Positions 31,027 through 53,691 of a DNA stretch of 64,000 nucleotides are shown one piece after another. Each line of letters begins with the position of its first letter. Position 1 is the stretch's first letter. The notes beneath the pieces were generated by a model that had not been told where the DNA came from, made no database searches, and worked only from the letters and a program-made list of their open reading frames with translations. This stretch comes from Terriglobia bacterium (lineage in GTDB: Bacteria; Acidobacteriota; Terriglobia; Acidiferrales; UBA7541), in assembly GCA_963695545.1 (NCBI GenBank), contig OY968796.1, positions 4,095,513 to 4,159,512 on the forward strand, read 5' to 3'. The translations under genes and the position numbers were made by a program.

Positions 31027-31181
31027 CGCACACCAGCTTGGAAGTGGAAGTGCTAATCCGGAAGCGGCACTGAAGGCTGAAAGAGGGCAGCCGGTAGCCG
31101 CAAACCGTTTTGGGTGCAGGCTCGAACGAGAGCCCGCTCGAATACTGAAGGGGAACTTAAGCTTATACCAGTCTCCTCCGG

Positions 31182-31397
31182 CGTGGCTCGCGATTCTCGC
31201 GCGCGTGTCGAATTGACCACCCGCGCGCAGCCTCAGGTGACGCGCGCGTTTGCGGCAGGATCGAAATCCGCCGCTGTAGAAGCTGCCTCGCGAAGTACGC
31301 TAGAATCGAAACTCGATCCGTCGGGGTGTAGCGCAGCTTGGTAGCACGCCTGCGTTGGGCGCACCGAACCCGACCCCAACAGCTCCTTTTCTTACTT
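31182..31397 (+). repeat. ~215-bp direct repeat, copy 1 (promoter + tRNA-Pro 5' half)
   Basis: Aligns over its whole length with 34500-34714. Confidence 0.9.
31322..31363 (+). pseudogene. Degenerate 5' half of tRNA-Pro(TGG)
   Basis: CGGGGTGTAGCGCAGCTTGGTAGCACGCCTGCGTTGGG covers acceptor 5' strand, D-arm and anticodon. No T-arm (GTTCRA) follows. TAGAAT -10 at 31301. Confidence 0.7.
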
Positions 31398-34484: not shown

Positions 34485-34499
34485 TGCTGGCTGGGCCGA

Positions 34500-34714
34500 C
34501 GTGGCTCGCGATTCCCGCGCCATGTCGAATTGACCACCCGCGCGCAGCCTTAGGTGACGCGCGCATTTGTGGCACGATCGAAATCCGGCGCTGTGGAAGC
34601 TGGCTCGCGAAGTACGCTAGAATCGAAACTCAATCTGTCGGGGTGTAGCGCAGCCTGGTAGCGCGCCTGCCTTGGGCGCGGACCGACCGACTCCAACAGC
34701 TCCATTCTCTACTT
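34500..34714 (+). repeat. ~215-bp direct repeat, copy 2 (promoter + tRNA-Pro 5' half)
   Basis: Aligns with 31182-31397. Confidence 0.9.
34639..34682 (+). pseudogene. 5' half of tRNA-Pro(TGG), probable att junction
   Basis: CGGGGTGTAGCGCAGCCTGGTAGCGCGCCTGCCTTGGG then loss of tRNA similarity; TAGAAT at 34618. Confidence 0.75.
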
Positions 34715-34969: not shown

Positions 34970-35512
34970 CTATTTAGGCAGCTTTGAGTTGATGTGCGTT
35001 GCTAGTACACGAATCTCGTTTCGAGCGATCTGACAGTCTTTTCGCGAAATACAAGGAAACATGTGACTGTACATATTGCGCACGCGCTTAATAAGCTCCA
35101 TGTGCCCAAGGAAGAATTCCAGCGTGGGAAAAACATCCGGGATGCAGTCGGACTGATAGGCCTTCACAACTTCTTCGAGCTGACCAAGCGTGACCAAATG
35201 TATTGGTAGGACTTTAACCGAAGAAGAGGAGCCGATCCACGGCATTGAATCCATTTTTTCCTGCTGATTCTCAGCGTACTCGAAAATCTTTTGTAGCTTA
35301 GTCCTGAGCGACACTTCCCACCAATCAATGCCATAGCACGTCGTCAAAAACGAATCGATTAGCAGGCGAAGCCCGTTTTCAAATTGGTACAGCGCAGGGA
35401 AAATGATATTACTCAGGTCCATCGCGGGAAAGTACTCAGCCGGAAGCCTGACTATCCGCCTGGGACCTCTGATACGCGTTTGCCTACTTGTTCTTTTTGT
35501 CCTTCGGGCCAT
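34970..35512 (-). CDS. Swt1-like HEPN domain protein (putative RNase)
   Basis: YQFENGLRLLI...WW...LGQL...RNMYSH (E...Rx4H pattern). Confidence 0.72.
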   Translation of the reverse strand: MARRTKRTSRQTRIRGPRRIVRLPAEYFPAMDLSNIIFPALYQFENGLRLLIDSFLTTCYGIDWWEVSLRTKLQKIFEYAENQQEKMDSMPWIGSSSSVKVLPIHLVTLGQLEEVVKAYQSDCIPDVFPTLEFFLGHMELIKRVRNMYSHMFPCISRKDCQIARNEIRVLATHINSKLPK

Positions 35513-35714
35513 GTTTTCTCACGTGATGACGGGCGTTCCTGATTGACTGGACCTTGCTACCGCATACAGTTGCAATCTCCGTATCAGCCAGGGCAAATCT
35601 ATCAAGTATTTCCACTTTCCTCTCAAGGCTAGCTTCTTTCTCTGTTGCCACGCAAAGGTACGCCAACATCAAACGGATTGAATCCGAATCCGCCGACGAA
35701 CGATTGGAGTTCAT
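35484..35714 (-). CDS. Small HTH protein G (76 aa)
   Basis: Hydrophobic helix, then KVEILDRFALADTEIATVCGSKVQSIRN; ATGA-coupled to the upstream gene. Confidence 0.7.
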   Translation of the reverse strand: MNSNRSSADSDSIRLMLAYLCVATEKEASLERKVEILDRFALADTEIATVCGSKVQSIRNARHHVRKHGPKDKKNK

Positions 35715-35944
35715 TTCGTCCCCCTAAACTTTTTCCTTTTCAAGCCAGACTTCATCACGGCTACGGTTGGAGGCGTCGTGTCACAAATCACGGCGATTTC
35801 TTGATTTCCATAGCCGAGACGAGCCAAAACACGAACGCGATCTTCCAACCTCTGCAATTCTTTGATTGCGATATAGCCAAAAACAAGCGCTAGACTCGGC
35901 AGTGCTTGCTGCTCAGCTTCCCTTTCTTTACTTTTCTTCGCCAC
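35711..35944 (-). CDS. Small HTH protein F (77 aa)
   Basis: RVRVLARLGYGNQEIAVICDTTPPTV; AAGGAGG RBS. Confidence 0.75.
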   Translation of the reverse strand: MAKKSKEREAEQQALPSLALVFGYIAIKELQRLEDRVRVLARLGYGNQEIAVICDTTPPTVAVMKSGLKRKKFRGTK

Positions 35945-35976
35945 GAATTGATCCCTCCTTGAGCGTCTGGTAACTC

Positions 35977-36753
35977 TTAGGCTTCCAGTCGGCTTGGTGC
36001 AATCGGGTTAATCTCGACAATGATGTTCCTAATCTGGCTGCCATTCGCTGCGACCCTTGCGGGCACACGGTACTTCCGCCCCTGTGGACGGGCATCAAAA
36101 AGTATCAGCCATCCCACCCGTCGGGACTCTCTTTTCATGTAATCCCGCAGTTGAGCCGCTCCATTGTAGCGACTCTTCATTATCTTTAGTTCGATGAGAT
36201 GCGGAATTCGAGAAAGCACCACCACGACGTCAATAAAGCCAATTCCAGAAAATATTTCTCTCCACACCAACCCGCTTTCCGCAAGCACTCCCTTCGCAAA
36301 AACCGCAAGCAACGCTTGGCCAATGCGCTCAGGTCTTGGACGCAGCTCTCCGGCCTTTCTAGAAACCCAAAAGCTATCGACCGCCCGTGATTCCACAGCT
36401 CTCTTAAATCGATCAAGGAGCAAAGATATCGTCAACCTCGCCCTCTGTTTTAACTCTCGACGCTCTTGTGAGAGCCCACCCGGGAACGATTCAATCTCCG
36501 ACTTTGCTTTTTTTTTAAACTGGCCGTCGAGAACCGCAAGAATGGACTTTTCAAATTTCGGTCTATCGAGTTCCCGGTTATTTCGGTAGAACACTGTTCG
36601 AATTCGATGTGCTGATTCTAAGAGAGACTTATCCGTCCGGGGTCGCCGCTCTCTTTCGTAGAGATTCGCGAGACTCACCGCATACTGATCAACATCGCGC
36701 AAGCCTCTGCGCGAGAAATAGTCTTCCAAGAATCTCTGAACTGAGAAGATCAT
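35977..36753 (-). CDS. PD-(D/E)XK nuclease-fold protein
   Basis: C-terminal GFIDVVV...IELK...AAQLRDYM; N-terminal region unrecognised. Confidence 0.65.
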   Translation of the reverse strand: MIFSVQRFLEDYFSRRGLRDVDQYAVSLANLYERERRPRTDKSLLESAHRIRTVFYRNNRELDRPKFEKSILAVLDGQFKKKAKSEIESFPGGLSQERRELKQRARLTISLLLDRFKRAVESRAVDSFWVSRKAGELRPRPERIGQALLAVFAKGVLAESGLVWREIFSGIGFIDVVVVLSRIPHLIELKIMKSRYNGAAQLRDYMKRESRRVGWLILFDARPQGRKYRVPARVAANGSQIRNIIVEINPIAPSRLEA

Positions 36754-36762
36754 GCCTTTGCG

Positions 36763-37203
36763 CTAATGGCGCTTCCCCCTCGCCTTTTTATTGGCGGACG
36801 GGCGACCGTCCCGCTCCAGGTTGAACTCCTCACACACAAATTGGGTGATCCGCAAACTTCGGTCGATTGGAGTTTTCCCCCAGAGGTCGCGTCCGCCGGA
36901 AGCCCCTACGATTTCAAGAAGACCTTGGTCCTTCAATTCTCTCAATTCTGGAGTAATGTTCTGCCGCTGCATTTTCAAGTGTCCCGCAATCTCTTGTACG
37001 CCTCGACTTCCATCTGCGGCCAGATACACCTGTGCTCGTCTCTTGCTCTTCTTAAAGATCTCCATGGCCGAAGCTCGGTGCTTGCTGGCTTCTGCACGCA
37101 GGGCAAACGCAGTAGTTTGCTCCAGAGAATCGACTTTGTGCTCTATCAACCCCAACCTGTTCAATACCTGCTGATTCCAATCGAGTGAGCTGTCTTTGCG
37201 CAT
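36763..37203 (-). CDS. Coiled-coil + winged-HTH (ArsR/MarR-like) protein
   Basis: RAQVYLAADGSRGVQEIAGHLKMQRQNITPELRELKDQGLLE. Confidence 0.75.
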   Translation of the reverse strand: MRKDSSLDWNQQVLNRLGLIEHKVDSLEQTTAFALRAEASKHRASAMEIFKKSKRRAQVYLAADGSRGVQEIAGHLKMQRQNITPELRELKDQGLLEIVGASGGRDLWGKTPIDRSLRITQFVCEEFNLERDGRPSANKKARGKRH

Positions 37204-37234
37204 GATTACCTTACCTTGTAACCTTTCTAGCCGC

Positions 37235-37489
37235 CTACCTCGCAGCGATTCTCGTCTTGCCGGCCCGCGATAGCGCAGGATGCATAGTTCCTTCCCCGCT
37301 CGCTTCCAGCAACGGTTTGAGAAGCTTTGAAATTCTATTCACCCGCTTCATATCCAACCCCACCACGCTCCGGAGTTCCTGCCGCTTCATCCTTGCGATC
37401 GAAGCCTGCAAGATAAAAAGGTCCTCTAGGAGCTCGATAATCCTATCGAGTTTTTCTGTCGTGTTCTCCTCGTGCGGAGCCCTCTTCAT
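37235..37489 (-). CDS. Small HTH protein E (84 aa)
   Basis: KLDRIIELLEDLFILQ...RQELRSVVGLDMKRVNRISK; GGAG RBS; start at 37489. Confidence 0.7.
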   Translation of the reverse strand: MKRAPHEENTTEKLDRIIELLEDLFILQASIARMKRQELRSVVGLDMKRVNRISKLLKPLLEASGEGTMHPALSRAGKTRIAAR

Positions 37490-37665
37490 TGTTTTTTCTC
37501 CTTCCTGAAGAACCTTGCGATGCGATTGACTCTGTGGATGTCGCAACCAACAATCTTTCGAATCTCAAGCTGAGGCACATTCGCTTTCGCCAGCTCAGTT
37601 ATCAAAAGGTCCTTCAGAACCTCAGTGCCTATCTCTACTTGAGCGCCCGCTCTTTTAGTTGCCAT
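37486..37665 (-). CDS. Small HTH protein D (59 aa; absent from the ORF track)
   Basis: Manual translation MATKRAGAQVEIGTEVLKDLLITELAKANVPQLEIRKIVGCDIHRVNRIARFFRKEKKQ; GAGGTG RBS; ATGA overlap with E; paralogue of E. Confidence 0.75.
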   Translation of the reverse strand: MATKRAGAQVEIGTEVLKDLLITELAKANVPQLEIRKIVGCDIHRVNRIARFFRKEKKQ

Positions 37666-37689
37666 ATTCTTCTCACCTCTGCATTTCGC

Positions 37690-38484
37690 CTAAGACGTGG
37701 GAATTAGTGCATGCTTCGCCTTCACTACGCGTTCCCAATCGCGGAAGTTCAAGATGACCCTCTGACGGTCATGCCGCGAGATGGGATTCATATGCGCGAG
37801 TGGGTTTCGAGACGCACCAATACAATTGATGAGTTGACTGAACCACTCTATGTTCCCCAAGATAGCTTTTAACGCTTGCCAGGCATTTTGATTGCGCACG
37901 ATGGACACTAAGTCCTTGATATCGGTATAAAAGATGGGATGCGCCCCCCGTGCGCCGTGCCACGGTATTTCCGTCTCCTGGCGCATTCTCTCACGGACCG
38001 TGCGACGGACATTTTCAGATGCACATCGATCCCACCAATCCGGACCAATTGCTTGTCCCAAAACTCGTCTAAGAACTTCTCGCACGGAATTTTCAAAGAC
38101 ATACATAATCGGGTATACCTTTTCAGACATCTCCTTTGCCTCTGCTATCATCCGCGACGGCAAAATCGGGTCAGTAATCGACAATACGCCCCCGATTCGA
38201 ACCTCGCCCACTTTCGTCACTATCTTCGTTCTGACCTTCCTCTCCTCCGGGAATTCCTTCCTTGAGTTGAGCGTTGAGACTAAGCCGCGAACACGAGCAA
38301 CTGTCTCACCGTCTACGAATCGGTCCAGGCGCAGTCCTTCCTGATGAGCGATGCAGTAAACGGCTTCCTCCGTGCTCATCGGCACCTTCCGAATCAGTGC
38401 TTGGACGCGTTGAGAGAGGCGCTGTTTTGTAACGCCAAGCTTCCGAAGCAATGCGGTCCTAAGTGCCTTGTTCGTCATCGCCAT
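37690..38484 (-). CDS. Swt1-like HEPN domain protein with a helical/HTH-like N-terminus
   Basis: YVFENSVREVL...DWW...YTDIKDLVSIV...RNPLAH; GGGGAG RBS before the ATG at 38484. Confidence 0.8.
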   Translation of the reverse strand: MAMTNKALRTALLRKLGVTKQRLSQRVQALIRKVPMSTEEAVYCIAHQEGLRLDRFVDGETVARVRGLVSTLNSRKEFPEERKVRTKIVTKVGEVRIGGVLSITDPILPSRMIAEAKEMSEKVYPIMYVFENSVREVLRRVLGQAIGPDWWDRCASENVRRTVRERMRQETEIPWHGARGAHPIFYTDIKDLVSIVRNQNAWQALKAILGNIEWFSQLINCIGASRNPLAHMNPISRHDRQRVILNFRDWERVVKAKHALIPTS

Positions 38485-38497
38485 CCAGTTCTCCCCG

Positions 38498-38734
38498 TCA
38501 ATCGTTCTCTGCCCCTGGCTTCCGACGTTCCTTCCTTTCCTTTCGGACTTCTGCCAACCTGACACTGATCGCATTCGCTGTGGAATTTAGGAACGCCGCG
38601 ATTTCCTTCTGGCCATATCCTGCCCGGTCCAGTAGGTCCACTTGCTCCCTCTGCTTCAGCCCTCGGAGCAATGTCAATCCAATCAGACGCAGCGCCTGCA
38701 AAATCTGACTATTCGTGTCCTTCGGGTTATTCAT
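38498..38734 (-). CDS. Small HTH protein C (78 aa)
   Basis: EQVDLLDRAGYGQKEIAAFLNSTANAISVRL; ATGA-coupled. Confidence 0.75.
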   Translation of the reverse strand: MNNPKDTNSQILQALRLIGLTLLRGLKQREQVDLLDRAGYGQKEIAAFLNSTANAISVRLAEVRKERKERRKPGAEND

Positions 38735-38988
38735 TTAGGCCCCCTGCGCACTCGGCGGTCTCTCGATTTTCGCAAATTGAATAGCATCACTCGCACGGTG
38801 TTCGGCGTCGTATTCAGAATCTCAGCGATTTCTTTCGGCTGTAGTCCAGCCACAGAAAATAACCAAATCCTTTCTGTTTGACTCTTCCCCTCCGTCATGC
38901 CCATCACGGCGAGTCGGATAATCGCATCCAGCTTCCGCACGAGTGTATCCATCTTTTTTGAGATTGCGTCTAGACGCGTATCATCCAC
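38731..38988 (-). CDS. Small HTH protein B (85 aa, sigma70 region-4-like)
   Basis: KLDAIIRL...ERIWLFSVAGLQPKEIAEILNTTPNTVRVML. Confidence 0.78.
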   Translation of the reverse strand: MDDTRLDAISKKMDTLVRKLDAIIRLAVMGMTEGKSQTERIWLFSVAGLQPKEIAEILNTTPNTVRVMLFNLRKSRDRRVRRGPK

Positions 38989-39214
38989 GGTTCTTTGCCT
39001 TCTTCCTCATCGCCGTTGCTGCCGTGACGTAATTAACGGGTCTGCGCAGGATTTCAGCGACCTGCGCAGGTGATGCCCCCAGCTCTGTGAGTTTCACGAT
39101 CTTGTCGGTCATGCTGGCCTTAGAGCCCTCCGTACTTCGATCAAGCAGCAAGGAGATTATCAGGTCCAGACGTTGCACAATTGCTGCTACGGGGCTCGCT
39201 GTCTTTGGTCTCAT
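38981..39214 (-). CDS. Small HTH protein A (77 aa)
   Basis: RLDLIISLLL...DKIVKLTELGASPAQVAEILRRPVNYV. Confidence 0.72.
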   Translation of the reverse strand: MRPKTASPVAAIVQRLDLIISLLLDRSTEGSKASMTDKIVKLTELGASPAQVAEILRRPVNYVTAATAMRKKAKNRG

Positions 39215-39222
39215 ACAATAAT

Positions 39223-39252
39223 ATGTTAGCTCATATAATGAAGTATTGTCAA
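39223..39252 (-). promoter_or_regulatory. Promoter of the HTH-HEPN operon (leaderless or near-leaderless)
   Basis: Minus strand TTGACA-N18-TAACAT-N8-ATG; no SD sequence. Confidence 0.55.
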
Positions 39253-39355
39253 TAACGTTTTTTGAATCCTATAACTACATATCTGTCATTAGACAAAGAC
39301 AATCGTAGGCGTCATGGTTTCTGTTCCTCGGCCATTCTGATCACAACGTATCCTC

Positions 39356-39743
39356 AGCACGGACGGAGTGGTTTCTGGACACAATCTGGCACAGCTTCCC
39401 AACAGCGACAATTCAGTCACGCTGCCATGATCGAGTAGCACTTGGATTTCGGAATGGCTAGGTTCAGTGTTGGTTGGAGTCGATTCTGGAAGTCATCCAG
39501 GTCGTATTCCTCCATAAGTGACCAAAATATAGCAGTTTACGAGCTTATCCAGGCTGAAAACCTCGGTTTGTGACACGAAGCACTTCTCCGCAAGGCACGT
39601 TGCCCGACGCAGGCATTGGGAGAACCGGCGGCGTTTCTCGATCCAGACGCGTTTGGCCGCAGATCTGACGAACGAGCTTCCCGATTCCCTGAAGATCACC
39701 GCCAGACCCTATTCCCATATCCACGACGCTGAAGCTAACGATC
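39356..39743 (+). repeat. 388-bp direct repeat, copy 1
   Basis: Nearly identical to 39864-40251 (offset 508 bp; one mismatch noticed). Confidence 0.95.
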
Positions 39744-39863
39744 ACAAGATAACGCATAGCGATAATAGCCTGTATCCATAGCGTTTAGCAGTACTCTTGC
39801 ATTAAGCAGTATGATTTTTTCGATATGCGCTTGTGATATATTGTTTTACATTAGGATGTTCCG

Positions 39864-40251
39864 AGCACGGACGGAGCGGTTTCTGGACACAATCTGGCAC
39901 AGCTTCCCAACAGCGACAATTCAGTCACGCTGCCATGATCGAGTAGCACTTGGATTTCGGAATGGCTAGGTTCAGTGTTGGTTGGAGTCGATTCTGGAAG
40001 TCATCCAGGTCGTATTCCTCCATAAGTGACCAAAATATAGCAGTTTACGAGCTTATCCAGGCTGAAAACCTCGGTTTGTGACACGAAGCACTTCTCCGCA
40101 AGGCACGTTGCCCGACGCAGGCATTGGGAGAACCGGCGGCGTTTCTCGATCCAGACGCGTTTGGCCGCAGATCTGACGAACGAGCTTCCCGATTCCCTGA
40201 AGATCACCGCCAGACCCTATTCCCATATCCACGACGCTGAAGCTAACGATC
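39864..40251 (+). repeat. 388-bp direct repeat, copy 2
   Basis: Nearly identical to 39356-39743. Confidence 0.95.
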
Positions 40252-40368
40252 TAAACTACAACGTCTCGCCAGAGGTTGAATTCAGGCTCCCATTTGAGCC
40301 CCATTAGGAGGGCGTCCCGTTGCCAGAAGATCGTTTTCAGAATGCTTTCTTGGATCAGGGTGTTCCGG

Positions 40369-40478
40369 GCACGCACGAACCAGTTTCTGGACACAATCTC
40401 GCACAGCTTCTCAACGGCGACAATTCAGTCACGCTTCCATCATCGGGCAGCACCTGGAATTCAGAAAGGCTTAGGACC
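40369..40478 (+). repeat. Diverged partial third copy of the repeat's first ~110 bp
   Basis: GTTTCTGGACACAATCTCGCACAGCTTCTCAACGGCGACAATTCAGTCACGCT. Confidence 0.85.
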
Positions 40479-42188: not shown

Positions 42189-43112
42189 TCAATTCTTACC
42201 CAACTCTGCCACGATAGATCTGAGGCGATCAAGTAGCTCAATTCGCGTGCAGGGAGTTTGCTGATAACTTTCTCTCGCTTGTCCGAGCAGTCGCCCGACA
42301 AGTTTGCCCGGCTCTACGCCAAATTCTTGCATTATGTCTTTTCCCGTAATCGGCATTAGGCTAGAAAGGTCAGCCAATATGGCGTTCTCGATGAGTTTTC
42401 TGGCCTCGCCCTCGAAATCATAGTCCGACGAAAAGGCTCTCAAGCTTTGCGCCCATTTCTCGTAATTCCTCCGCACCAAACGCTCCGGATCGATGTATTC
42501 ATGACCCATATCAATGGCGATTGCTGCAACTAAGGCTTCGAATTGGTGTGGAGGGTGATACCGACTTCTGCGAAATCTCCAATCGTTACAAATCAAGTCC
42601 TTAGATTCATCTTTCTCCATCAAACGCAGGACATTCAAGAGTGATTCGAGGAACTCCAGCGCCTCCTGCAGAAGGGCAACCAGGCATCTGTCCCATTCGT
42701 CTTCCGAATCGGGCACTGCGGTTCCACATTTGGCAGAAAACCAATCATGGCAGTCACCAATGGTCTTCTTGTCGTGCGATTCTTCAATACTTAGATTGTG
42801 CTGCGTATATGTTCTCAATTTTTGAACATTGAGAGGATGGCCACGAAGCGTTCCGTCCCCATCAAGGGAGTAGGCATCGAAACGCTTCATGAGATAAGGT
42901 AAGCTTATTTTTCCGGCTTCCCAATACAAAACATAGAGCCACGAAACTAGTCTTAGAAAACCGAGTTCCGCAGGGACGAACTTTGGCATGCGTTGAGAAA
43001 CCGTGTCAAACAGCCCGGCTCCGTCAGCAAGTAACGCAATGACGCGAGTATTTGTCTCCTCTGCCTTCCCAACAATCCGATACATCAATTGCTCGGGACT
43101 TGGAGTAGACAT
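42189..43112 (-). CDS. Hypothetical protein with a HEPN-like Rx4H motif and a C-terminal CCA-adding-enzyme-like tail
   Basis: KLRTYTQHNL; C-terminal PITGKDIMQEFGVEPGKLVGRLLGQA. Confidence 0.6.
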   Translation of the reverse strand: MSTPSPEQLMYRIVGKAEETNTRVIALLADGAGLFDTVSQRMPKFVPAELGFLRLVSWLYVLYWEAGKISLPYLMKRFDAYSLDGDGTLRGHPLNVQKLRTYTQHNLSIEESHDKKTIGDCHDWFSAKCGTAVPDSEDEWDRCLVALLQEALEFLESLLNVLRLMEKDESKDLICNDWRFRRSRYHPPHQFEALVAAIAIDMGHEYIDPERLVRRNYEKWAQSLRAFSSDYDFEGEARKLIENAILADLSSLMPITGKDIMQEFGVEPGKLVGRLLGQARESYQQTPCTRIELLDRLRSIVAELGKN

Positions 43113-43123
43113 GCACGCGATCC

Positions 43124-46100
43124 TCAGCCTTTGTAATAGCTAACGGGGTCAGCAATTGGCCCGACAAAATTAAAAGCAATGTGAAACTCTCCGAGGGAGG
43201 ACCTTGGAGTGATATCAGGTTTACCAAAATCGCGAGGCCGAAAGTCAATTTGCCTACGAAGTTCTTCAATGTGGACGGAACCCTTCACGCCGTCGGGCGC
43301 GACCCATGCGACAATTCCGTGGAACTTTTGAGGCACCCCTGTAGGCGCACTGGCAATATAGCTTCGGACGATTCTCCTTCTTCCCATAACTCGCTCAGAT
43401 TCACGATCAAGCTCTTTGAAGGTTTGAAAAGCAAACTCCAAACGTCCCAGGTGGAAAAATGCCAACCCTCGAATGAAAGCCGTTACGAGAGGGCGTTTCG
43501 ATTCACCAGTGGCTTCGATAGCCTCAACCATCGCGAGGCATTCGTTCCATTGCGATAAACTAAGAGGAAGCAACATCCTTTCAGAGGCGAAAAGTTTTCG
43601 GCCAGTGCTTACTATCCACCATAAATCGAGCATCAAATCTAAACATCTCGCGTCGGCCGAGATTTTCTCTTTCTGAGAGCGAAGGTAAGTCAGGGCGTCA
43701 TTCAACCGCCGTGCATTCACCTCCGTTGCGCTCTCCGCACTCTCGGGAAGCCCTGAAATCCTTAAAGCCCTTAGGTAGTATCCTGCACACGAACCCTTCT
43801 CTTCCAGAGAAGCGAACGCTGCTTCTTCAAGATCCTCTAGATTCGCGACTTCTGCTATCTGCATCCTTCTCTTCTGCAGCATTAACTGCTGATCTACTTC
43901 TAGCTCTATCGATTCTGCTGTCTGAAATGACGACAAAACATCAGCGAGCAGTTCACTTTCAGCAACAGAATCGAGAACTTTCTCCTTAATCATCGTACGC
44001 GCAAACCAAGAAAGGATATCTATGGGATAGTAGCTGTCGGGATCTTGCATGCGGGCTTGGCGGAGCGCCGCGTTTGCTTCTTCGTAGAACTGTTTCAGTT
44101 CCCGTGCGTCTGCCGTGTGACGTAATGCTCGGGTCGCCAACGAAGCCGTTAGTTCGTTGAAAAGAAACGTACGCAACGCGCGATTTTTCTTGTCTTGACC
44201 GAGAATTTCAAAGGCCGACTTAACAACGGCCTCGACTTCCGCGAGTGCGTTGTCAATTCCTGTATCCGCCGAGTCGATTCTGTCCCGGCCCACGGCCCAT
44301 TCGCGGAGCAGATTTGCCTCTTGAAGCATCAGCCTCGGATTCTGAAGCCCCCGCTGCTGGCGAAGTTGTTTGAGCGCTTCGGCCACTTCTCTGAGATAAG
44401 GCCTAAAGTACTCATTGCTTTCACCTTTAGGTCCAATCGCTCGCAGAAGCTCGACACCGAAGGTCACCTCCCGACCGTCGGTCATCACCCCTGTTTGGTC
44501 ATGGATTTCAAGGAGTAACCGTTTTACAAATTCGATTTCAGTACTCGGTCCACCCATCCTAGAGTCAACAATGATTCTTGCCTCTAGAGCATTTCGCGGA
44601 CCCACTTCGATATTTCCCACTTCGTCTTCGTACCACCTGATTATGTCTATCCCTTCAAAAAGCTTTACGATCCTGAGCGTGTCCTTCTTTCCTAATGTCC
44701 GTAAGAGCAATTCCAGAGGAACCCGAAGGCCAAATCGGCCCGGAACCATAACCAGACACGTAAAATCTTGAATGTCCGTCAGTACTTCTCCACCGGTCGT
44801 CCTCGTCATTTCCGAAAATAGCTGCCTCTGACCGATCCATCCGGCCTTTTTCAACTGTTCTTCGAGAATTGTCGTCGAGCGCGATTCAACTTCGGTAGCT
44901 GCAGCTTTCTTCCTGAGCAATTCCTCTGCGTGCCCAATCTCAAGACGCAACTCCGGTACGTATTGCCATCCGGGTCGAAGGAAGCATTCTGTATAGCGCA
45001 ACCAAAAATGTTTGGTCTAGGCGAGGTCGCACGCGGCTCACAAGGTCTCGCAGTGAAGGGTGGAATCCAGCCAGGAAATCTCCGAACTCAGCAAGCTCCG
45101 ATTCAATCAGTTGCGCGGGGGCCTCTACGCTATTCTCTTTCGGGTGTTGAGCAAGCCTATAGGTGCTTCCGACCAAGATGACCTTTCGGCCACGACCCGT
45201 CAGACGCCGCAAGAATCCTGAATAATCCTCCTGATCGACCATTCCATCCCAAATAACCAAAGCGGCCCTTGCGCCGCAATCTTCAGCCCACTGACAAAAG
45301 TGATCTATATCGGAATACACAGGTTTCTGACTGCGTCGCTCAATGTACAGCACTGGGTATTCTCGTTGGAGCGCAACCTCGTAGGCCAAACTCGCGAGTG
45401 CGACCGTTTTCCCCGTTCCGGTTTGGCCATGCAAAATTATCGGAACGTCCGAAAGTACGTGCCTCGACAGTTTCTCTTTCACCATGCCGGACAGTTCCTT
45501 CTGATAATGCCGTCTGAACGCGAACCCTCTCGCGTACGAAGCCCACTGCGGCGGGCCCTCCGCAGTAGCCAAGAAATTCCGAAACTCACGATACCTAGCT
45601 TCTTCGGATAAAGGCTTGGGCGGGAGAATGTCACGCTCGTCAATTAGATTGGCCGATCGTGACAATTGAACCCATTTGTCCCGAGGAACGACGACCGATT
45701 TCCTTGCCATTTGGACGCGACGGCCCTCACGCTCTTCTTCGGTCGTTCCGAGCGCGATTAACCCTTCCTCTGCACCTCGGGCGAGAACTGTCGAAAGACT
45801 TCCTTCGTGCGGCGTGATTTTCCCCTGTTCTAACAGCCGGCAAAAATCAGCGTTCTGAAGAAGTTCCTCTGACACACTGAATATATGGACTTGACCAACC
45901 GAAAAACCATCGAGAATGGGCAGCAATTCATCAGGAGTGAACCAATCTAGCGATCCTTTATAGCCCTCAATAAAAAGGGTACCGAGGGGGCTCACCAATT
46001 CCGGCAATCGACGCGCGAGCGAGACAGCAACCTGTCTCCGTTTTGTCCACTCGAACCGGGTCAACGGCGGGCGCGTCATCTCATCTGCTTGGTTCAAAGA

Positions 46101-46532
46101 TCCAAAAAGAAATGTGCAGTGAAGGACACGTTTATTTCGCGGATCGCTCGGGTTGAATTTTTCTTCGAAAATAGGTTGCACTTCACGCCAAGGCGAACGA
46201 AAAGCACCCAATAGAATTGAGTCAATTGACGAAGTATAAATGCCGCTCCATGCAAATTGCGAGACGGCGTGCAACCATTCAGGCACGGAGAGGCGTTTGC
46301 AGCGTTCGTCCATCCATGCCAAAGCCGCGTCTGGCTGCTGAGCGGCGTCACCTTCAAAAATATTGTAGTAGCTTAAAGTCGCAGGATTTTGTGGGCCGTA
46401 TTTACGAACGATCTCGGACAGTAACGGATCTTGACCAGTCTCAATTCTGAGATAGTCCTGCCCAATGTACAGGAATGAAGGTCCCTGCTTCAATCTATCG
46501 TAAATGGTTCTTTGGTCTTTATGATTTGCCAT
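43124..46532 (-). CDS. Large STAND-like P-loop NTPase (SIR2-like N-terminus, helical region, cold-shock/OB-like C-terminus), split by a +1 frameshift near 44950
   Basis: ORFs 44940-46532 and 43124-45001 join if one base is removed. Walker A GQTGTGKT, Walker B LVIWD, IYTSSIDS, and C-terminal FHGIVAWV...FHIAFNFVGPIA. Confidence 0.65.
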
Positions 46533-49072: not shown

Positions 49073-50614
49073 TCATTTCGCTCGCTGGCGCAGTGTGGAG
49101 AGTGCTTCCGCAACCTCGTGACCTTTAGCTTCGATCAGGTCGAGTAACTCTTCGGGAGTGGGGGTATCTTCGTTGCTCTTGGCATTGGGGTTGACGGCTT
49201 TAAGATCAAAATTGTTCTTTTCAATGTCTACTCTGTTGACTTTCCAACTCCGTTCACTGTCGACTCTCAGCGGAAGAAGCTGAAAGAACTCCTCGAACCG
49301 GGCCAACGTCAACGGCGATCTCTTGCCAACTTTGATGTCGGACAGGTCGTAATACCAAATCTCCTGGGTTGGCTGACCCTTTGTGAAGAACAATAGATTC
49401 GTCTTCACTCCCGCGCCGGCGTGTACAAAACTTCCTGCCGGGAGACTGACGATGCACCATAGATCGCACTCATCAAGAAGCTTTCGTTTGGTCTGTAGGA
49501 ACGCAGTTTCGTTGGTACGGAAAAGCACACCTTCATCGAGCACGATTCCGCACCGCCCGCCAGATTTCAAGCTATCGATGACATGCTGGAGGAAGAGCAC
49601 TTGCGTCGCACGAGTCTTGTACGCGAACCTTGTCTGCGCCTCTTTCCCTTCTTTGCCCCCGAACGGCGGATTCATCAGAACCACGTCATACAAAGAGGGC
49701 GCATCCAGGAACAGCCCACCGTAATTTTCTGCGCCCGTAAGCGTATTGCCATGCCACATATGCGGCTCGTCTATCCCGTGCAGGACTAGATTGGCAAGCC
49801 CGATTGGGTAAATCGTGTTGTCTTTCTCCCGGCCAAAGAAGGTACGTTGCTTGAGAATCTCTAGGTGCTCCGCCGACTTGATCCTGTCATTATTCGGCCC
49901 GGCCATATGCTCGTAGGATTGGGCAAGGAATCCACCTGTGCCACAACCGGGGTCATAAACTTTTTCGCCGATCTGCGGGTCAATTACCCTCACCATCGCC
50001 CGAATAATTTCTCGAGGTGTAAAGAACTGGCCTCCATCGTTCCCCTTCTCTCCCATTTTGAGCAGGAGGCCCTCATAAACCTGCGAGAGTGTGAATACAT
50101 GAGTCGTATCCACACTTTCAACGCTGATCTCGTGAATCCTGTCGAGAATGTCGAGAAGATTTCGTTCAGTATCAATTCGCGTGCGCTCCAGGCTGGATAC
50201 AATCTCGCTCATTACCTTTTGGCGCGACGTAGCGTTCGGCTTATCTCGCAGGCCCTTAAGGTGTGGGATGAGATCGCCATTTACAAAGCTAAACAGTGCT
50301 CCGAGTGCACCATTCTCAAGCTCCTTTCGCTTGGAACCGCCAGGTGCAGCCCAATCTTGCCACCGGTAAGGTGCCGCTAAAGACGGTTGAAACTCGGCTC
50401 TGACCGCTTCGGCTTCTTCTCCTTCGCGCGTCTCGTGCTCATCCAGGATGCGCAGGAAAAGAATCCAGGTCAGTTCGGGGACATATTGCAGAGCGCCAGC
50501 ACAGTTTGAACGGCGCATGATGTCGCAAATGCCTTTGATGTAGGAATTGAGATTCTGCTGACCGTTGAACTTGCGGCCATTTCCATTCGACGCGACTTTT
50601 CGTGATTGAGCCAT
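49073..50614 (-). CDS. hsdM: Type I R-M methyltransferase subunit
   Basis: GQFFTPR, DPGCGTGGFL and NPPF motifs. Confidence 0.93.
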   Translation of the reverse strand: MAQSRKVASNGNGRKFNGQQNLNSYIKGICDIMRRSNCAGALQYVPELTWILFLRILDEHETREGEEAEAVRAEFQPSLAAPYRWQDWAAPGGSKRKELENGALGALFSFVNGDLIPHLKGLRDKPNATSRQKVMSEIVSSLERTRIDTERNLLDILDRIHEISVESVDTTHVFTLSQVYEGLLLKMGEKGNDGGQFFTPREIIRAMVRVIDPQIGEKVYDPGCGTGGFLAQSYEHMAGPNNDRIKSAEHLEILKQRTFFGREKDNTIYPIGLANLVLHGIDEPHMWHGNTLTGAENYGGLFLDAPSLYDVVLMNPPFGGKEGKEAQTRFAYKTRATQVLFLQHVIDSLKSGGRCGIVLDEGVLFRTNETAFLQTKRKLLDECDLWCIVSLPAGSFVHAGAGVKTNLLFFTKGQPTQEIWYYDLSDIKVGKRSPLTLARFEEFFQLLPLRVDSERSWKVNRVDIEKNNFDLKAVNPNAKSNEDTPTPEELLDLIEAKGHEVAEALSTLRQRAK

Positions 50615-50616
50615 TG

Positions 50617-51633
50617 TTATTCTTCGGGTTCCTCTAAAGCCTCCGGCACATAAACTCGCTTCAAAGGCAGTAGCCCTTTGTAGCGCGAATCAAATTGATC
50701 GTAATGCTCCAAAACAAGGTCCACAAACTCGGTACCGTCGATCAGGCGCAAATTGCTCTTGCTTCGAGCAAAGTTCAAGGCGGGAGTAGTAAAGGTCCCC
50801 AGGGTAACCACGAGACCGAACTCATTTTCACCTACTTTGCCGTAGAGAGCAGAGACCACAGGATCGCCGACGCTCCCCTCGCCGCTTTTCACTTGTACCT
50901 TGATGATTGGAGGTTCAAATCCCAATTCATCTTTGTGAGCAACAATGTCAATCCCGCCATCAGATCCCTCTGCGGATACACGCGTCCGATACCCCATTGC
51001 TTCCAAGAGATGTGCCACAAACCCGGCCAGCGGATGGCCCTTTAATTCCAGAGCAAGCCGTTTAAGGATAAAATCGCGTGTCGTATCCTCGATTTCTTCC
51101 GTAACAGCCGACACGGTCTCGTCCGCCTCCACAGCAGCAGTGGTGGGCTTCCCTTCGAGGGCGGCTAAGAACTCCTCTGCGTAATTCTTTACCTGGAAAA
51201 GACTCAATGCTGACCCGATCTCGTATAAAGCGCCCTGTTTGAAATGCGTTCTCGGAAGCGAACGTAACCACTTGACTGCCCGCAAATTGGGATATCCTGG
51301 CTCCAGATTGGAATCGTACTTGTAGTTTCCCTCGACTTGACCGATGTGGACGTGCCGATCCCGCTTCGAGGGATAGACGACAAAATCCCCGACCTTCATT
51401 TCGTGTACAAACCGGAAAAGCTGTCCTGCACTATTGGGGATTTTGGCCGGTTTCCAATCCGGCCAGCATTTAGCAACCTTTGCTTTGAACGCCTCCCGGT
51501 CAGGTCTTAACTTGCTGAGGTCTCCCATTTCGGACCAGCCGAGCGCAACGTAATTCTTCTTGAGAAAAAGTGCGTCCGCGTCCCCTGTCCTGCCCGCATG
51601 AATGCCCCAAACTGTCTTCTCAGAATCGCCCAT
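50617..51633 (-). CDS. Mrr-family restriction endonuclease
   Basis: DGGIDIVA...VQVK...LIDG Mrr catalytic domain with an N-terminal recognition-like domain. Confidence 0.85.
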   Translation of the reverse strand: MGDSEKTVWGIHAGRTGDADALFLKKNYVALGWSEMGDLSKLRPDREAFKAKVAKCWPDWKPAKIPNSAGQLFRFVHEMKVGDFVVYPSKRDRHVHIGQVEGNYKYDSNLEPGYPNLRAVKWLRSLPRTHFKQGALYEIGSALSLFQVKNYAEEFLAALEGKPTTAAVEADETVSAVTEEIEDTTRDFILKRLALELKGHPLAGFVAHLLEAMGYRTRVSAEGSDGGIDIVAHKDELGFEPPIIKVQVKSGEGSVGDPVVSALYGKVGENEFGLVVTLGTFTTPALNFARSKSNLRLIDGTEFVDLVLEHYDQFDSRYKGLLPLKRVYVPEALEEPEE

Positions 51634-51634
51634 A

Positions 51635-52849
51635 TCACAGTTCTCCGTAGTATGCCTGACGTAGGAGTGCCGCAGGTATTGCAGCGATGAACTTAAGTTG
51701 CTCTTCTATCGCGTTCTGTATTCGTTGTGCTCCCTCGATTCGCGCTGTGAGCGCCGCCGTGAGGCTTTGCTGTTCGGTAAGTGATGGCACCGGTACCGGC
51801 TCGTTTAGGAGCTGTGTGCGTGTTATCTTTTTCATCGTACCGCTCGCACCTCCTGCCCGTTGTTTCCAGTAGCCCGTTAAATATAGGAACGACAAATATG
51901 AACTCAAAAAGAGTGGTAACAGTTCACCATTTGGCAGGATGCGAATCGTCAGATCTGAAGCAACAATCTTCTCCGTTCCCCCTGGATACAGTGCTGCGCG
52001 CCCGACCAACTCAGGCGTGTTGCTCCGCGCCACGAGGACCTCACCCGCTGTAACGAAAGACTGTGCTGCATCCAAAGCCCACATTTTTGCATGCTTCACA
52101 CCTGAACGATTAAAGCCAATCTCTGTTAGGCAGGCCGTCGTAATTGCCGATACATCGGTATCCCCGTCCGTCGCGATCGATTTCGACGGGAGAAGCACGG
52201 AGATTTCCGCCAGAAGCTTCTTTGACCACTGCTTTGCCTCTGTACCACCAAATATCGCTCGGAGATGAGCACCAGCCAATTCCTTGGCGGCTCGCAATTG
52301 TATTTCGCCGCTGACCCGCGCATTATCGACGGCTTTCATTCGATGATTCAACAAAGCTACGATACGCGGCTGCTCTGAAATAGGAGGAAGGGCAATTCTC
52401 AGCGACTCGACCTCCCGCTTTGTTACGTGGCGTAGACCGACGCCACCATGAGCCTTGCCTATCATCTCTCCCAACTGCTCATTAATTGCAAATACTGCCC
52501 AGTCCGCATCGAGACAGGATTTGTCAAGATTCAAAAGGAAAATGTGTTGGTTTAATACGCCTCGTTCACCCTGCCATGTATGAGCTCCGAACGACGTTCC
52601 AGGCGTTCCGGACCAGGCTAATAGGACATCACCTGCCTCGACAACGACCCGATCATTCAGCGGACCTGCCCAGTAGTTGAACCCTTTTCGAGCGTCGTTA
52701 AGATTTTGGATTCTAATAATAGGTGTCCCCTGAGTGCTCCAGTCCGATTCTTTATATGCGTCTCCGTTTGTTAGCCGACACAGCTCTCCCAACTTCACCC
52801 ATCGCCATCCAGTAGGCAATGGTTGAGAACTGGAGCCATCAAATTGCAT
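51635..52849 (-). CDS. hsdS: Type I R-M specificity subunit
   Basis: LPTGWRWVKLGE; two TRDs ending LPPISEQ and VPSLTEQ; ALLRQAY.GEL. Confidence 0.9.
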   Translation of the reverse strand: MQFDGSSSQPLPTGWRWVKLGELCRLTNGDAYKESDWSTQGTPIIRIQNLNDARKGFNYWAGPLNDRVVVEAGDVLLAWSGTPGTSFGAHTWQGERGVLNQHIFLLNLDKSCLDADWAVFAINEQLGEMIGKAHGGVGLRHVTKREVESLRIALPPISEQPRIVALLNHRMKAVDNARVSGEIQLRAAKELAGAHLRAIFGGTEAKQWSKKLLAEISVLLPSKSIATDGDTDVSAITTACLTEIGFNRSGVKHAKMWALDAAQSFVTAGEVLVARSNTPELVGRAALYPGGTEKIVASDLTIRILPNGELLPLFLSSYLSFLYLTGYWKQRAGGASGTMKKITRTQLLNEPVPVPSLTEQQSLTAALTARIEGAQRIQNAIEEQLKFIAAIPAALLRQAYYGEL

Positions 52850-52863
52850 TGTGGTGGTCGCTT

Positions 52864-53691
52864 TCAGAGTTGAATCCTTTTGCCGCCCGTGGCTCCTAGT
52901 ACAAACACAACGGCGCTTTCGAGTTTTCTAAAGAGAAAGGAAATCAAGGCCAACACGTCAAGGGCGTCCTCGCGGCTCATTGGCCAATTCAATTCAGGCT
53001 CGTGTGCCTGGGGATTCCGCACAGCGTTCATCAATCCCATACAGAGGAACATAATTCCTAGCTGCTCATCTCTCTCGCTCTGGCTTCTTTGACTATTGAT
53101 CTTGATTGGTCCGCCGAAATTCAAAGCATCCCCCATCAGGGGTTGTCCACTCTTTGCGATCTGGGAGTTCTTGCTAACGGCTGTATCGAATGCTTTGCAA
53201 CATTCAAATACGGCATGAAAATATGCTCCGCGCCCAAAGTGACTCCTGCCGTGCTTGATGACTTGCGGGTGGAACCCTCGACCATCGAATGCAATTTCGT
53301 CCGGCGACTTAGTTTGCCGAACCGTCGTTGCCTGCACCCCAGTGATCATCAAGGTGCCGTTCTCAGTGGCCCGCACGCCATAAAATTCCAGGACGGAATT
53401 TACAGACGACAGGAAACGTTCGTATTGTTCCCGTCTGCCGATCCAGCCCTGTGGATGACAGGCAGTCTCTATCACCTTGAGCACGGCGTGCGGCTTGGCT
53501 CCTGCCTCACTTTGAAGCTGTTGAAAAACCTCTGCTACAAATCGCCACTTTGTTCCGCCATCGTGGACAATCTTGGGATATCCGCTTCGCTGAAAAAGCT
53601 GTGTGATTTCACTGCCAGTGAAGTAACCTCCAATGACTTGTGCCAACATCTCAAGAGCTTCATCGCGAAGAGACGGCAAGTCTTTGCTCAT
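52864..53691 (-). CDS. TIGR02391 family protein (AbiJ-N-like + HEPN-like)
   Basis: TGSEI...TKWR; HPQVI...AVFE..K...RNPQAH. Confidence 0.8.
   Translation of the reverse strand: MSKDLPSLRDEALEMLAQVIGGYFTGSEITQLFQRSGYPKIVHDGGTKWRFVAEVFQQLQSEAGAKPHAVLKVIETACHPQGWIGRREQYERFLSSVNSVLEFYGVRATENGTLMITGVQATTVRQTKSPDEIAFDGRGFHPQVIKHGRSHFGRGAYFHAVFECCKAFDTAVSKNSQIAKSGQPLMGDALNFGGPIKINSQRSQSERDEQLGIMFLCMGLMNAVRNPQAHEPELNWPMSREDALDVLALISFLFRKLESAVVFVLGATGGKRIQL

Follow-up and report, generated by a model that had tools for sequence, protein, structure and literature searches.

An operon of eight small helix-turn-helix genes and three predicted nucleases in a Terriglobia genome: a conserved array with plug-in effectors

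We describe an 11-gene operon in a stretch of 64,000 nucleotides (the window) from the genome of a Terriglobia bacterium (GenBank assembly GCA_963695545.1, contig OY968796.1, positions 4,095,513 to 4,159,512 of the forward strand). The operon, at 34970-39214 of the window on the minus strand, consists of 11 co-oriented open reading frames (ORFs; here g1 to g11) with intergenic distances of -29 to +32 bp. It encodes seven wingless mini helix-turn-helix (mini-HTH) proteins, one winged HTH (wHTH) protein (g7), two Swt1-like HEPN proteins (g4 and g11) and one PD-(D/E)XK protein (g8). An earlier note on this DNA had reported the 11 closely packed genes, which we confirm, and had proposed an undescribed system made of three modules, each a group of small HTH genes with its own nuclease. 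We find that the cassette is real, widespread and intact, that it is better described as an HTH array, the constant part, carrying plug-in effectors, and that it resembles a kind of system predicted only recently by computation, the poly-wHTH (PRA-wHTH) systems of Li, Burroughs and Aravind (bioRxiv 10.64898/2026.10.19.760177, 22 Oct 2026).

The observation that carries this description is that the HTH genes and the nuclease stay together across genomes, a point that the earlier note had proposed to check. We collected 113 loci with relatives of g4: 22 from genomes, the best 80 of 135 from metagenomes, and 11 that come from 10 of the 401 genomes of the window's phylum. A full ORF joining the N-terminal domain of g4 (NTD1) to the HEPN domain is present in 92 of them, including the window and its near copy L034, and setting aside 17 with less than 400 bp of upstream sequence leaves 75 informative loci. 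Of these 75, 73 have one or more small HTH or wHTH genes in the same orientation within 3 kb, and 66 have at least two. Counted by clusters, the linkage holds in 60/61 at 90% identity and in 15/15 at 50%. The two loci that have no co-oriented array (L106 and L107) are the same sequence, in which the array is divergent and the HEPN ORF begins with an in-frame mini-HTH. The HTH profiles were trained on these same loci, hence we report their background in the window's genome: of 48,837 ORFs the mini-HTH profile matches 8, and 7 of these belong to the cassette; for the wHTH profiles there are 1-3 matches outside the locus. The HTH-nuclease linkage is conserved far beyond chance. Named hosts include Acidobacteriota, Chloroflexota, Actinomycetota, Bacteroidota and several archaeal groups. 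Where there is context on both sides of the locus, the number of small genes is 2-8 in 35 of 39 loci. A single small gene with a HEPN gene, the minimal form, also occurs (L017, L024 and L099).

The dependence is asymmetric: the NTD1-HEPN protein is almost never found apart from small HTH genes, and the arrays occur with other effectors. The profile of g2-type proteins matches 5 of the 401 genomes, the window's own included, and the other four have 2-4 mini-HTH genes beside a different effector, with no g4 within 10.5 kb. These effectors are a wHTH-Schlafen protein together with an NTD1-like HEPN (L121), a wHTH-fused restriction endonuclease-like (REase-like) protein (L123; broken in L122; called REase-like by eye, with no supporting Pfam match), and a g7-g8 pair (L124). 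The wHTH profile, seeds included, matches 10 of 251 genomes of an archaeal phylum and 4 of 251 Chloroflexota genomes. The 12 non-seed wHTH loci comprise 7 arrays and 5 lone ArsR-like regulators with wHTH-profile E-values near 1e-11 (L158-L160, L163 and L164), the latter dropped as array loci. The effectors of the 7 arrays are NTD1-HEPN in two loci (one of which also has the N-terminal domain of g8, NTD2, joined to an HNH domain) and other nuclease-like genes in three; none is visible in the remaining two (L153, and L162 on a 3-kb contig).

Gene order inside the array gives units that differ from the three proposed modules. The g5 gene follows g4 in 17 of the 17 loci that show both. We find NTD2 in 9 loci (7 distinct), joined to C-terminal partners that vary: DUF8371-type or other REase-like domains, an HNH domain or an AAA domain. 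Because a wHTH gene lies directly upstream of NTD2 in 9/9 loci, g7-g8 is a unit of its own. Fourteen loci extend about 500 bp or more beyond g6; g7-g8 come after g6 in just 3 of them (2/11 after merging near copies), and in 6 it is g9 that directly follows g6. The g9-g10 pair precedes g11 in the window and L034 and in L030, it precedes a wHTH-Schlafen gene in L035/L037 and L040, and it has no co-oriented effector in L041. The trio g9-g10-g11 stands alone in L030/L125. Of the modules in the earlier note, then, the linkage of g9-g10 to g11 does recur; the middle one is wrong, since g5-g6 travel with g4 and g7-g8 form their own pair, and the third is not exclusive, since g9-g10 also precede other effectors. 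An HTH array with plug-in effectors is therefore the better description. In two Actinomycetota-type arrays, the gene after the g7-like wHTH gene (L005:5422-6150 and L056:4702-5436) encodes a protein of 242-244 aa that matches nothing in Pfam and shows no clear nuclease motif; it may be an effector not yet recognised.

Table 1. Genes of the cassette, its predicted promoter and the left boundary of the surrounding element, in window positions.
Feature	Position	Strand	Basis
g1, mini-HTH (hydrophobic N-helix, three-helix HTH, basic tail), 77 aa	38981..39214	-	alignment; pN/pS 0.38
g2, mini-HTH, most widespread subtype (bacteria and archaea), 85 aa	38731..38988	-	Pfam Sigma70_r4_2, E 4e-6; subfamily clustering
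g3, mini-HTH, 78 aa	38498..38734	-	38% to g2; alignment
g4, three-helix NTD1 and Swt1-like HEPN, predicted RNase, 264 aa	37690..38484	-	Pfam HEPN_Swt1
g5, shortened mini-HTH, travels with g4, 59 aa	37486..37665	-	40% to g6
g6, shortened mini-HTH, sister of g5, 84 aa	37235..37489	-	shares tree clade with g5
g7, N-helix and winged HTH, cognate partner gene of g8-type proteins, 146 aa	36763..37203	-	ArsR/Crp-type wHTH matches below cut-off
g8, helical NTD2 and predicted PD-(D/E)XK nuclease (DUF8371 family), 258 aa	35977..36753	-	invariant residues; fold matches
g9, mini-HTH, 77 aa	35711..35944	-	alignment; subtype also in Bacteroidota loci L017/L018 (tree)
g10, mini-HTH, 76 aa	35484..35714	-	30% to g9; orthologues in 7 non-redundant loci including near-identical L034
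g11, second Swt1-like HEPN, without NTD1, Rx4H motif intact, 180 aa	34970..35512	-	26% to g4
sigma70-type promoter (predicted), ends 8 nt before g1 start	39223..39252	-	10/12 matches, -35 at 39252
att-like site, copy of tRNA-Pro(TGG) 5' end, left element boundary	34636..34679	+	44 bp, 97.7% identical to C1:4217-4260

All 11 ORFs are real genes under purifying selection, because the ratio of nonsynonymous to synonymous differences (pN/pS) against orthologues is 0.21-0.41 (pooled and uncorrected, with pS near saturation; the near-identical L034 is excluded from the pools, and the g11 value comes from one orthologue). The start of g4 at 38484 agrees with the length of its relatives, 262-264 aa. 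The GC content of the individual genes is 0.47-0.55, compared to 0.61 for the genome. Of the 5 sites that the scanned region yields, the predicted promoter scores best; chance alone would give 4.3, so that the count is not significant. L001, L034 and L036 have the same box and spacing, 6-8 nt ahead of the start codon, and because of this recurrence the transcript of g1, a gene that has no upstream Shine-Dalgarno sequence, is probably leaderless. About 40 bp upstream of the -35 box, at ~39290-39305 on the minus strand, a short motif is kept before g1 in L001, L034, L036 and L050 (by eye), possibly an operator or activator site.

The seven small HTH paralogues that the earlier note had recognised indeed align as one family, with a hydrophobic N-terminal helix, a three-helix HTH and a basic tail. 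They end in helix 3 and the basic tail with no wing; g7 is winged; and an N-terminal helix of varying length is found in all HTH subtypes. The small proteins are basic. Of the seven, g2 alone passes a Pfam cut-off, and g5 and g10 have no Pfam match at E<=0.1. An alignment of the mini-HTH profile with the wHTH profile covers 65 columns, the N-helix among them (hhalign 93%, E 2e-7), and on that account the mini-HTH proteins may be wingless forms. The mini-HTH profile has 8,178 matches, which we do not use as a family size, as many of the top ones are long multi-HTH repeat proteins that match generically, in the HTH part only. In a poorly resolved tree of 76 mini-HTH proteins (87 columns), g1, g2, g5, g6, g9 and g10 fall in each case beside relatives in other genomes and not with their neighbours, which indicates that the expansion is not a fresh local duplication. 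In that tree g5 and g6 form one clade, g9 and g10 another, and g3 is unplaced. The recognition helix of g2-type proteins is alike from Acidobacteriota to archaea. The subtypes keep their order, and their constraint (pN/pS 0.21-0.38) is about that of the HEPN gene (0.25), which fits non-redundant subunits. Seven fused mini-HTH proteins were checked: six are single sequences, each on one contig, and only P0247 has five members. A search for longer wHTH fusions found none, which is weak evidence, as wHTH-Schlafen fusions are seen directly.

For the effectors, g4 and g11 are predicted to be HEPN RNases on the basis of their motifs and homology. HEPN domains with an Rx4-6H motif are RNases in abortive-infection and toxin-antitoxin (TA) systems, and we confirm the motifs named in the earlier note, RNPLAH in g4 and RNMYSH in g11. 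The g4 protein matches Pfam HEPN_Swt1 above cut-off (E 5e-9), and in its alignment (the window protein and 69 of 113 homologues) H231 is present in 70/70 rows and R226 in 69/70. The structure model, built for the 99%-identical P0001, has a mean confidence (pLDDT) of 91 and an all-helical HEPN fold that matches HEPN structures including AbiF, Swt1 and AbiA with Z 5-8; the best is AbiF (8vz6; Z 8.2, root-mean-square deviation (rmsd) 4.7, 151 aligned). Foldseek gives no match at E<=0.001 for the g4 model, and a PDB sequence search with the g4 profile gives nothing meaningful, with no sequence-level match for NTD1. The g11 protein has its HEPN fold by homology to g4, being 26% identical to the g4 HEPN domain (E 3e-11); its Swt1 and Abi_2 Pfam matches are weak. 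Both proteins match PADLOC PDC-M34B profiles (E 1.5e-38 for g4, 2e-11 for g11). NTD1 superposes on the AROD of archaeal Rpa1 (8aa9; Z 8.3, rmsd 2.2, 54 residues, 17% identity). AROD is described as an acidic three-helix protein-interaction bundle that binds OB folds (PMC10122647, in the part drawn on here). Because NTD1 is basic (13 K/R vs 6 D/E) and AROD acidic, and because NTD1 has no PDB sequence match, the likeness of the two three-helix bundles is a lead only. Small helical bundles may, moreover, reach such a Z through an arrangement that is common among them.

PD-(D/E)XK folds are nucleases, and g8 is predicted to be one from its D...(D/E)xK motif and from restriction-type fold matches. 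E142, D175, E188, K190, Q201 and Y205 are invariant in 49 rows (the window protein and 48 of 100 matches), and the protein groups with DUF8371/PDDEXK_9 clusters in the Atlas. The model has pLDDT 91, and its nearest folds are McrC (best Z 7.9), SfsA, NucC and NucS. Foldseek gives no match for the g8 model at E<=0.001, and a PDB sequence search with the g8 profile gives nothing meaningful. A structure search with NTD2 finds generic helical bundles alone (best Z 7.4, a coat protein of a filamentous archaeal virus).

The reading that we favour, tentatively and with a little less than even confidence, is that the HTH proteins form a guard scaffold that restrains the plug-in nucleases until infection, so that the whole would be a multi-effector abortive-infection cassette. 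The hydrophobic N-terminal helices of the eight small proteins would probably hold them together as a hetero-oligomer, which would probably sit on DNA through its HTH heads and basic tails, and which probably also represses the operon. The nucleases would dock via N-terminal adaptors, NTD1 on g4, and NTD2 on g8 through the partner g7, and would be held inactive there. Foreign DNA, degradation of the host DNA, or loss of short-lived subunits after host shut-off might then disturb the scaffold, upon which the two HEPN RNases and the PD-(D/E)XK DNase would act and the cell would arrest or die, with protection from phage as the presumed outcome. We favour this reading because the effector depends one-way on the array, because the adaptor domains persist while the catalytic domains change, and because small subunits and HEPN are equally constrained. 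Several points weigh against it. Arrays differ in make-up and in size, some having a single small gene and others about eight, and this is difficult to reconcile with a complex of fixed stoichiometry; some arrays, such as L153, have no effector. The six single-sequence mini-HTH fusions may be stop-codon errors, and so are a weak sign of physical association. The context evidence, moreover, does not separate defence from addiction.

That the HTH proteins instead bind and coat phage or plasmid DNA, blocking its expression or replication with the nucleases as back-up, is an account we regard as unlikely but worth keeping in view. Coating of invader nucleic acid is what has been predicted for poly-wHTH arrays (10.64898/2026.10.19.760177, section 37, in the part of the preprint used here), and it agrees with the basic small proteins, with arrays that have no evident effector (again L153) and with the array as the constant part. 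A fast arms race over target sequence would not be expected, however, to leave the small genes of the window's clade no less constrained than HEPN, nor the g2-type recognition helix so similar between Acidobacteriota and archaea, and coating does not call for an effector with a dedicated, conserved adaptor that is almost never found without the array. Also unlikely, in our estimation, is that the cassette is a stack of type II TA units stabilising an integrative and conjugative element (ICE) by addiction, in which a single HTH antitoxin encoded next to each nuclease neutralises it, and in which arrays are piled-up units and orphan antitoxins. The minimal one-gene forms, the solitary g9-g10-g11 of L030, the fixed g7-g8 pair, and the position of the cassette at the end of an ICE beside AbiE all suit such a stack. 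The 2-8 small genes seen in most loci do not, nor do a g9-g10 pair that persists before unrelated effectors and a g5-g6 pair that lies downstream of g4; and among 72,556 plasmids, where addiction modules are expected, there is no full-length g4 match, only one partial HEPN match, which has no array.

Leaderless first genes are known for autoregulatory repressors, and the small proteins could be transcription regulators only, a repressor cascade for the nuclease genes or for the ICE with no physical control of the nucleases. The HTHs are like sigma region 4 or LuxR, the first gene looks leaderless, and by eye a short imperfect palindrome overlaps the promoter. We give this proposal little credence, as it leaves unexplained the adaptor domains of the effectors, the fixed pairing of g7 with NTD2, and the presence of up to eight distinct regulators in one operon. 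The guard scaffold can also be extended beyond what we favour, to a pan-prokaryotic immune architecture distinct from PRA-wHTH, in which non-redundant single-domain HTH proteins make up one hetero-oligomeric DNA sensor and interchangeable nucleases dock by two new adaptors. In its boldest form NTD1 would be a true AROD relative that reads OB-fold single-strand-binding proteins (SSB), and the HEPN would fire on phage SSB or exposed replication intermediates. We think this extended reading improbable.

The cassette lies in an ICE beside AbiE and type I restriction-modification (R-M) genes, as the earlier note had placed it. The cassette ends ~290 bp inside the 44-bp tRNA-Pro(TGG) copy, whose partner is a tRNA-Pro called by aragorn at C1:4217-4260; pairing the two presupposes that the contig is circular, and the element is then ~34 kb. 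The element includes AbiEii/AbiEi, an hsdM/Mrr/hsdS/hsdR type I R-M cluster, ArdC, SSB, and the type IV secretion genes VirB2, VirB4 and VirB9-like. Beside the tRNA-Pro (G000:C1:2950-4173), a probable ICE integrase is split over three short ORFs (by eye), and for that reason the ICE may be immobile or there may be assembly errors. A 220-bp segment with the 5' fragment of tRNA-Pro is present twice (~31178-31397 and 34496-34714, 89% identical), each copy beside a glyoxalase-family gene, which suggests repeated integration at the same att site. Between the cassette promoter and abiEii (39356-40163) there is a tandem duplication of period 508 bp, with 300 nt identical in two copies and a third, weaker copy near 40354-40471 (118 nt at 85%); the duplication may be recent, or it may have arisen in the assembly. 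On the minus strand at 42189-46532, a 530-aa ORF with nSTAND_NTPase5 overlaps a 625-aa ORF with no family match and is followed by a 307-aa unknown, which may represent one STAND defence gene, split or frameshifted, or else a system of three genes. At 49073-56051, a Mrr-type nuclease and a Hypoth_Ymh gene are embedded among hsdM, hsdS and hsdR. Shortly before the window begins (G000:C1 4086954-4087736), aragorn predicts a pair of overlapping tmRNA genes, of which one is permuted. The neighbours of the cassette family are often R-M, integrase, Cas1, GmrSD or OLD/SMC-like genes, and the archaeal arrays L152, L153 and L155 adjoin SMC/SbcC-like or OLD-type ATPase genes. Among named relatives, the one nearest to g4 (72%) is in a Terriglobia metagenome-assembled genome. 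There are no relatives in IMG/VR, searched with g4, the g4 alignment and the g8 alignment, no relatives of g4 in GenBank phages, and nothing in the plasmids for g2, g7 or an archaeal wHTH.

This cassette is a compact, intact and clonable example (4.3 kb, with eight HTH proteins and three nucleases) of a class found in under-studied bacteria and archaea. From its conserved gene order and adaptor pairing one would predict that g7 goes with NTD2 and the mini-HTH proteins with NTD1, predictions that are able to separate guarding, coating and stacked TA units. If the guard scaffold is true, it would be a prokaryotic immune receptor of a new construction, a multi-subunit sensor made of tiny paralogues that carries plug-in effectors.

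Amongst known systems, PADLOC-DB 2.0 gives only the HEPN half of the candidate PDC-M34, which consists of M34A/DUF5343 and M34B, a Swt1-like HEPN; that it would yield no full system had been expected in the earlier note. We reject PDC-M34 because the partner gene is missing: g4 and g11 are of the M34B type, and there is no M34A match at E<=0.1 in the 11 genes and 4 neighbours, with a profile that detects M34A in 4/4 control loci. Those true PDC-M34 loci (L025-L028) have M34A/DUF5343 and a HEPN without NTD1, and no mini-HTH in their 1.5-kb flanks (4/4). The main text of the paper defining PDCs, in the part consulted, does not mention M34, and our literature search found nothing on PDC-M34 or DUF5343. 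The sole paper it found joining Swt1, HEPN, HTH and phage is the HEPN survey PMC3710099. In the portion of that survey used here, the Abi2/AbiF/Swt1 RNases share with g4 and g11 the HEPN branch and the Rx4-6H motif, and no HTH arrays are given for Swt1-like HEPNs. AbiF in structure 8vz6 is bound to a non-coding RNA (entry title), whereas the HEPN partners in the cassette are protein arrays. The ParA-wHTH systems (10.64898/2026.10.19.760177, section 20), as far as the preprint was drawn on, resemble g7 and its relatives in having at least one wHTH gene and an elongated N-terminal helix, and are mostly archaeal, but neither the cassette nor the neighbours scanned have a ParA gene.

The closest likeness is to the poly-wHTH systems, which our literature search found in print only as one computational paragraph (10.64898/2026.10.19.760177; the statements below rest on the part of that preprint consulted). 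They consist of small, rapidly evolving (w)HTH genes, of which as many as six or more may stand in a run, with variable N-terminal extensions of four types and an effector that is mostly HEPN; here there are eight such genes, with an N-terminal helix of varying length, two HEPN proteins and one PD-(D/E)XK protein. There as here, some arrays have no effector and the hosts are diverse prokaryotes. The earlier claim of an undescribed system thus stands in so far as PADLOC-DB 2.0 does not call it, and falls in so far as the preprint names systems with the same theme. The repeated domain is winged there; seven of the eight small proteins here have no wing, though they may be wingless members. The other effectors listed in the preprint are cNMP cyclase, HKD, TIR and ParA/Tox-RelA where ours are REase-like, Schlafen, HNH and AAA. 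Among 84 neighbour and control proteins scanned, a sample seeded on this locus, there is no ParA, RelA, TIR, HKD or cyclase, and a Pfam RelA_SpoT search towards ParA/Tox-RelA loci finds only housekeeping-length genes among the matches listed (150 of 421). Wingless subunits and the NTD1 and NTD2 adaptors are not mentioned in the part of the preprint's text consulted. In our judgement the cassette probably belongs to the same or an overlapping family. Its architecture resembles that of the poly-wHTH class and suggests that it works like the members of that class; as a candidate member it would add wingless subunits, two adaptor domains, and REase, Schlafen and HNH effectors.

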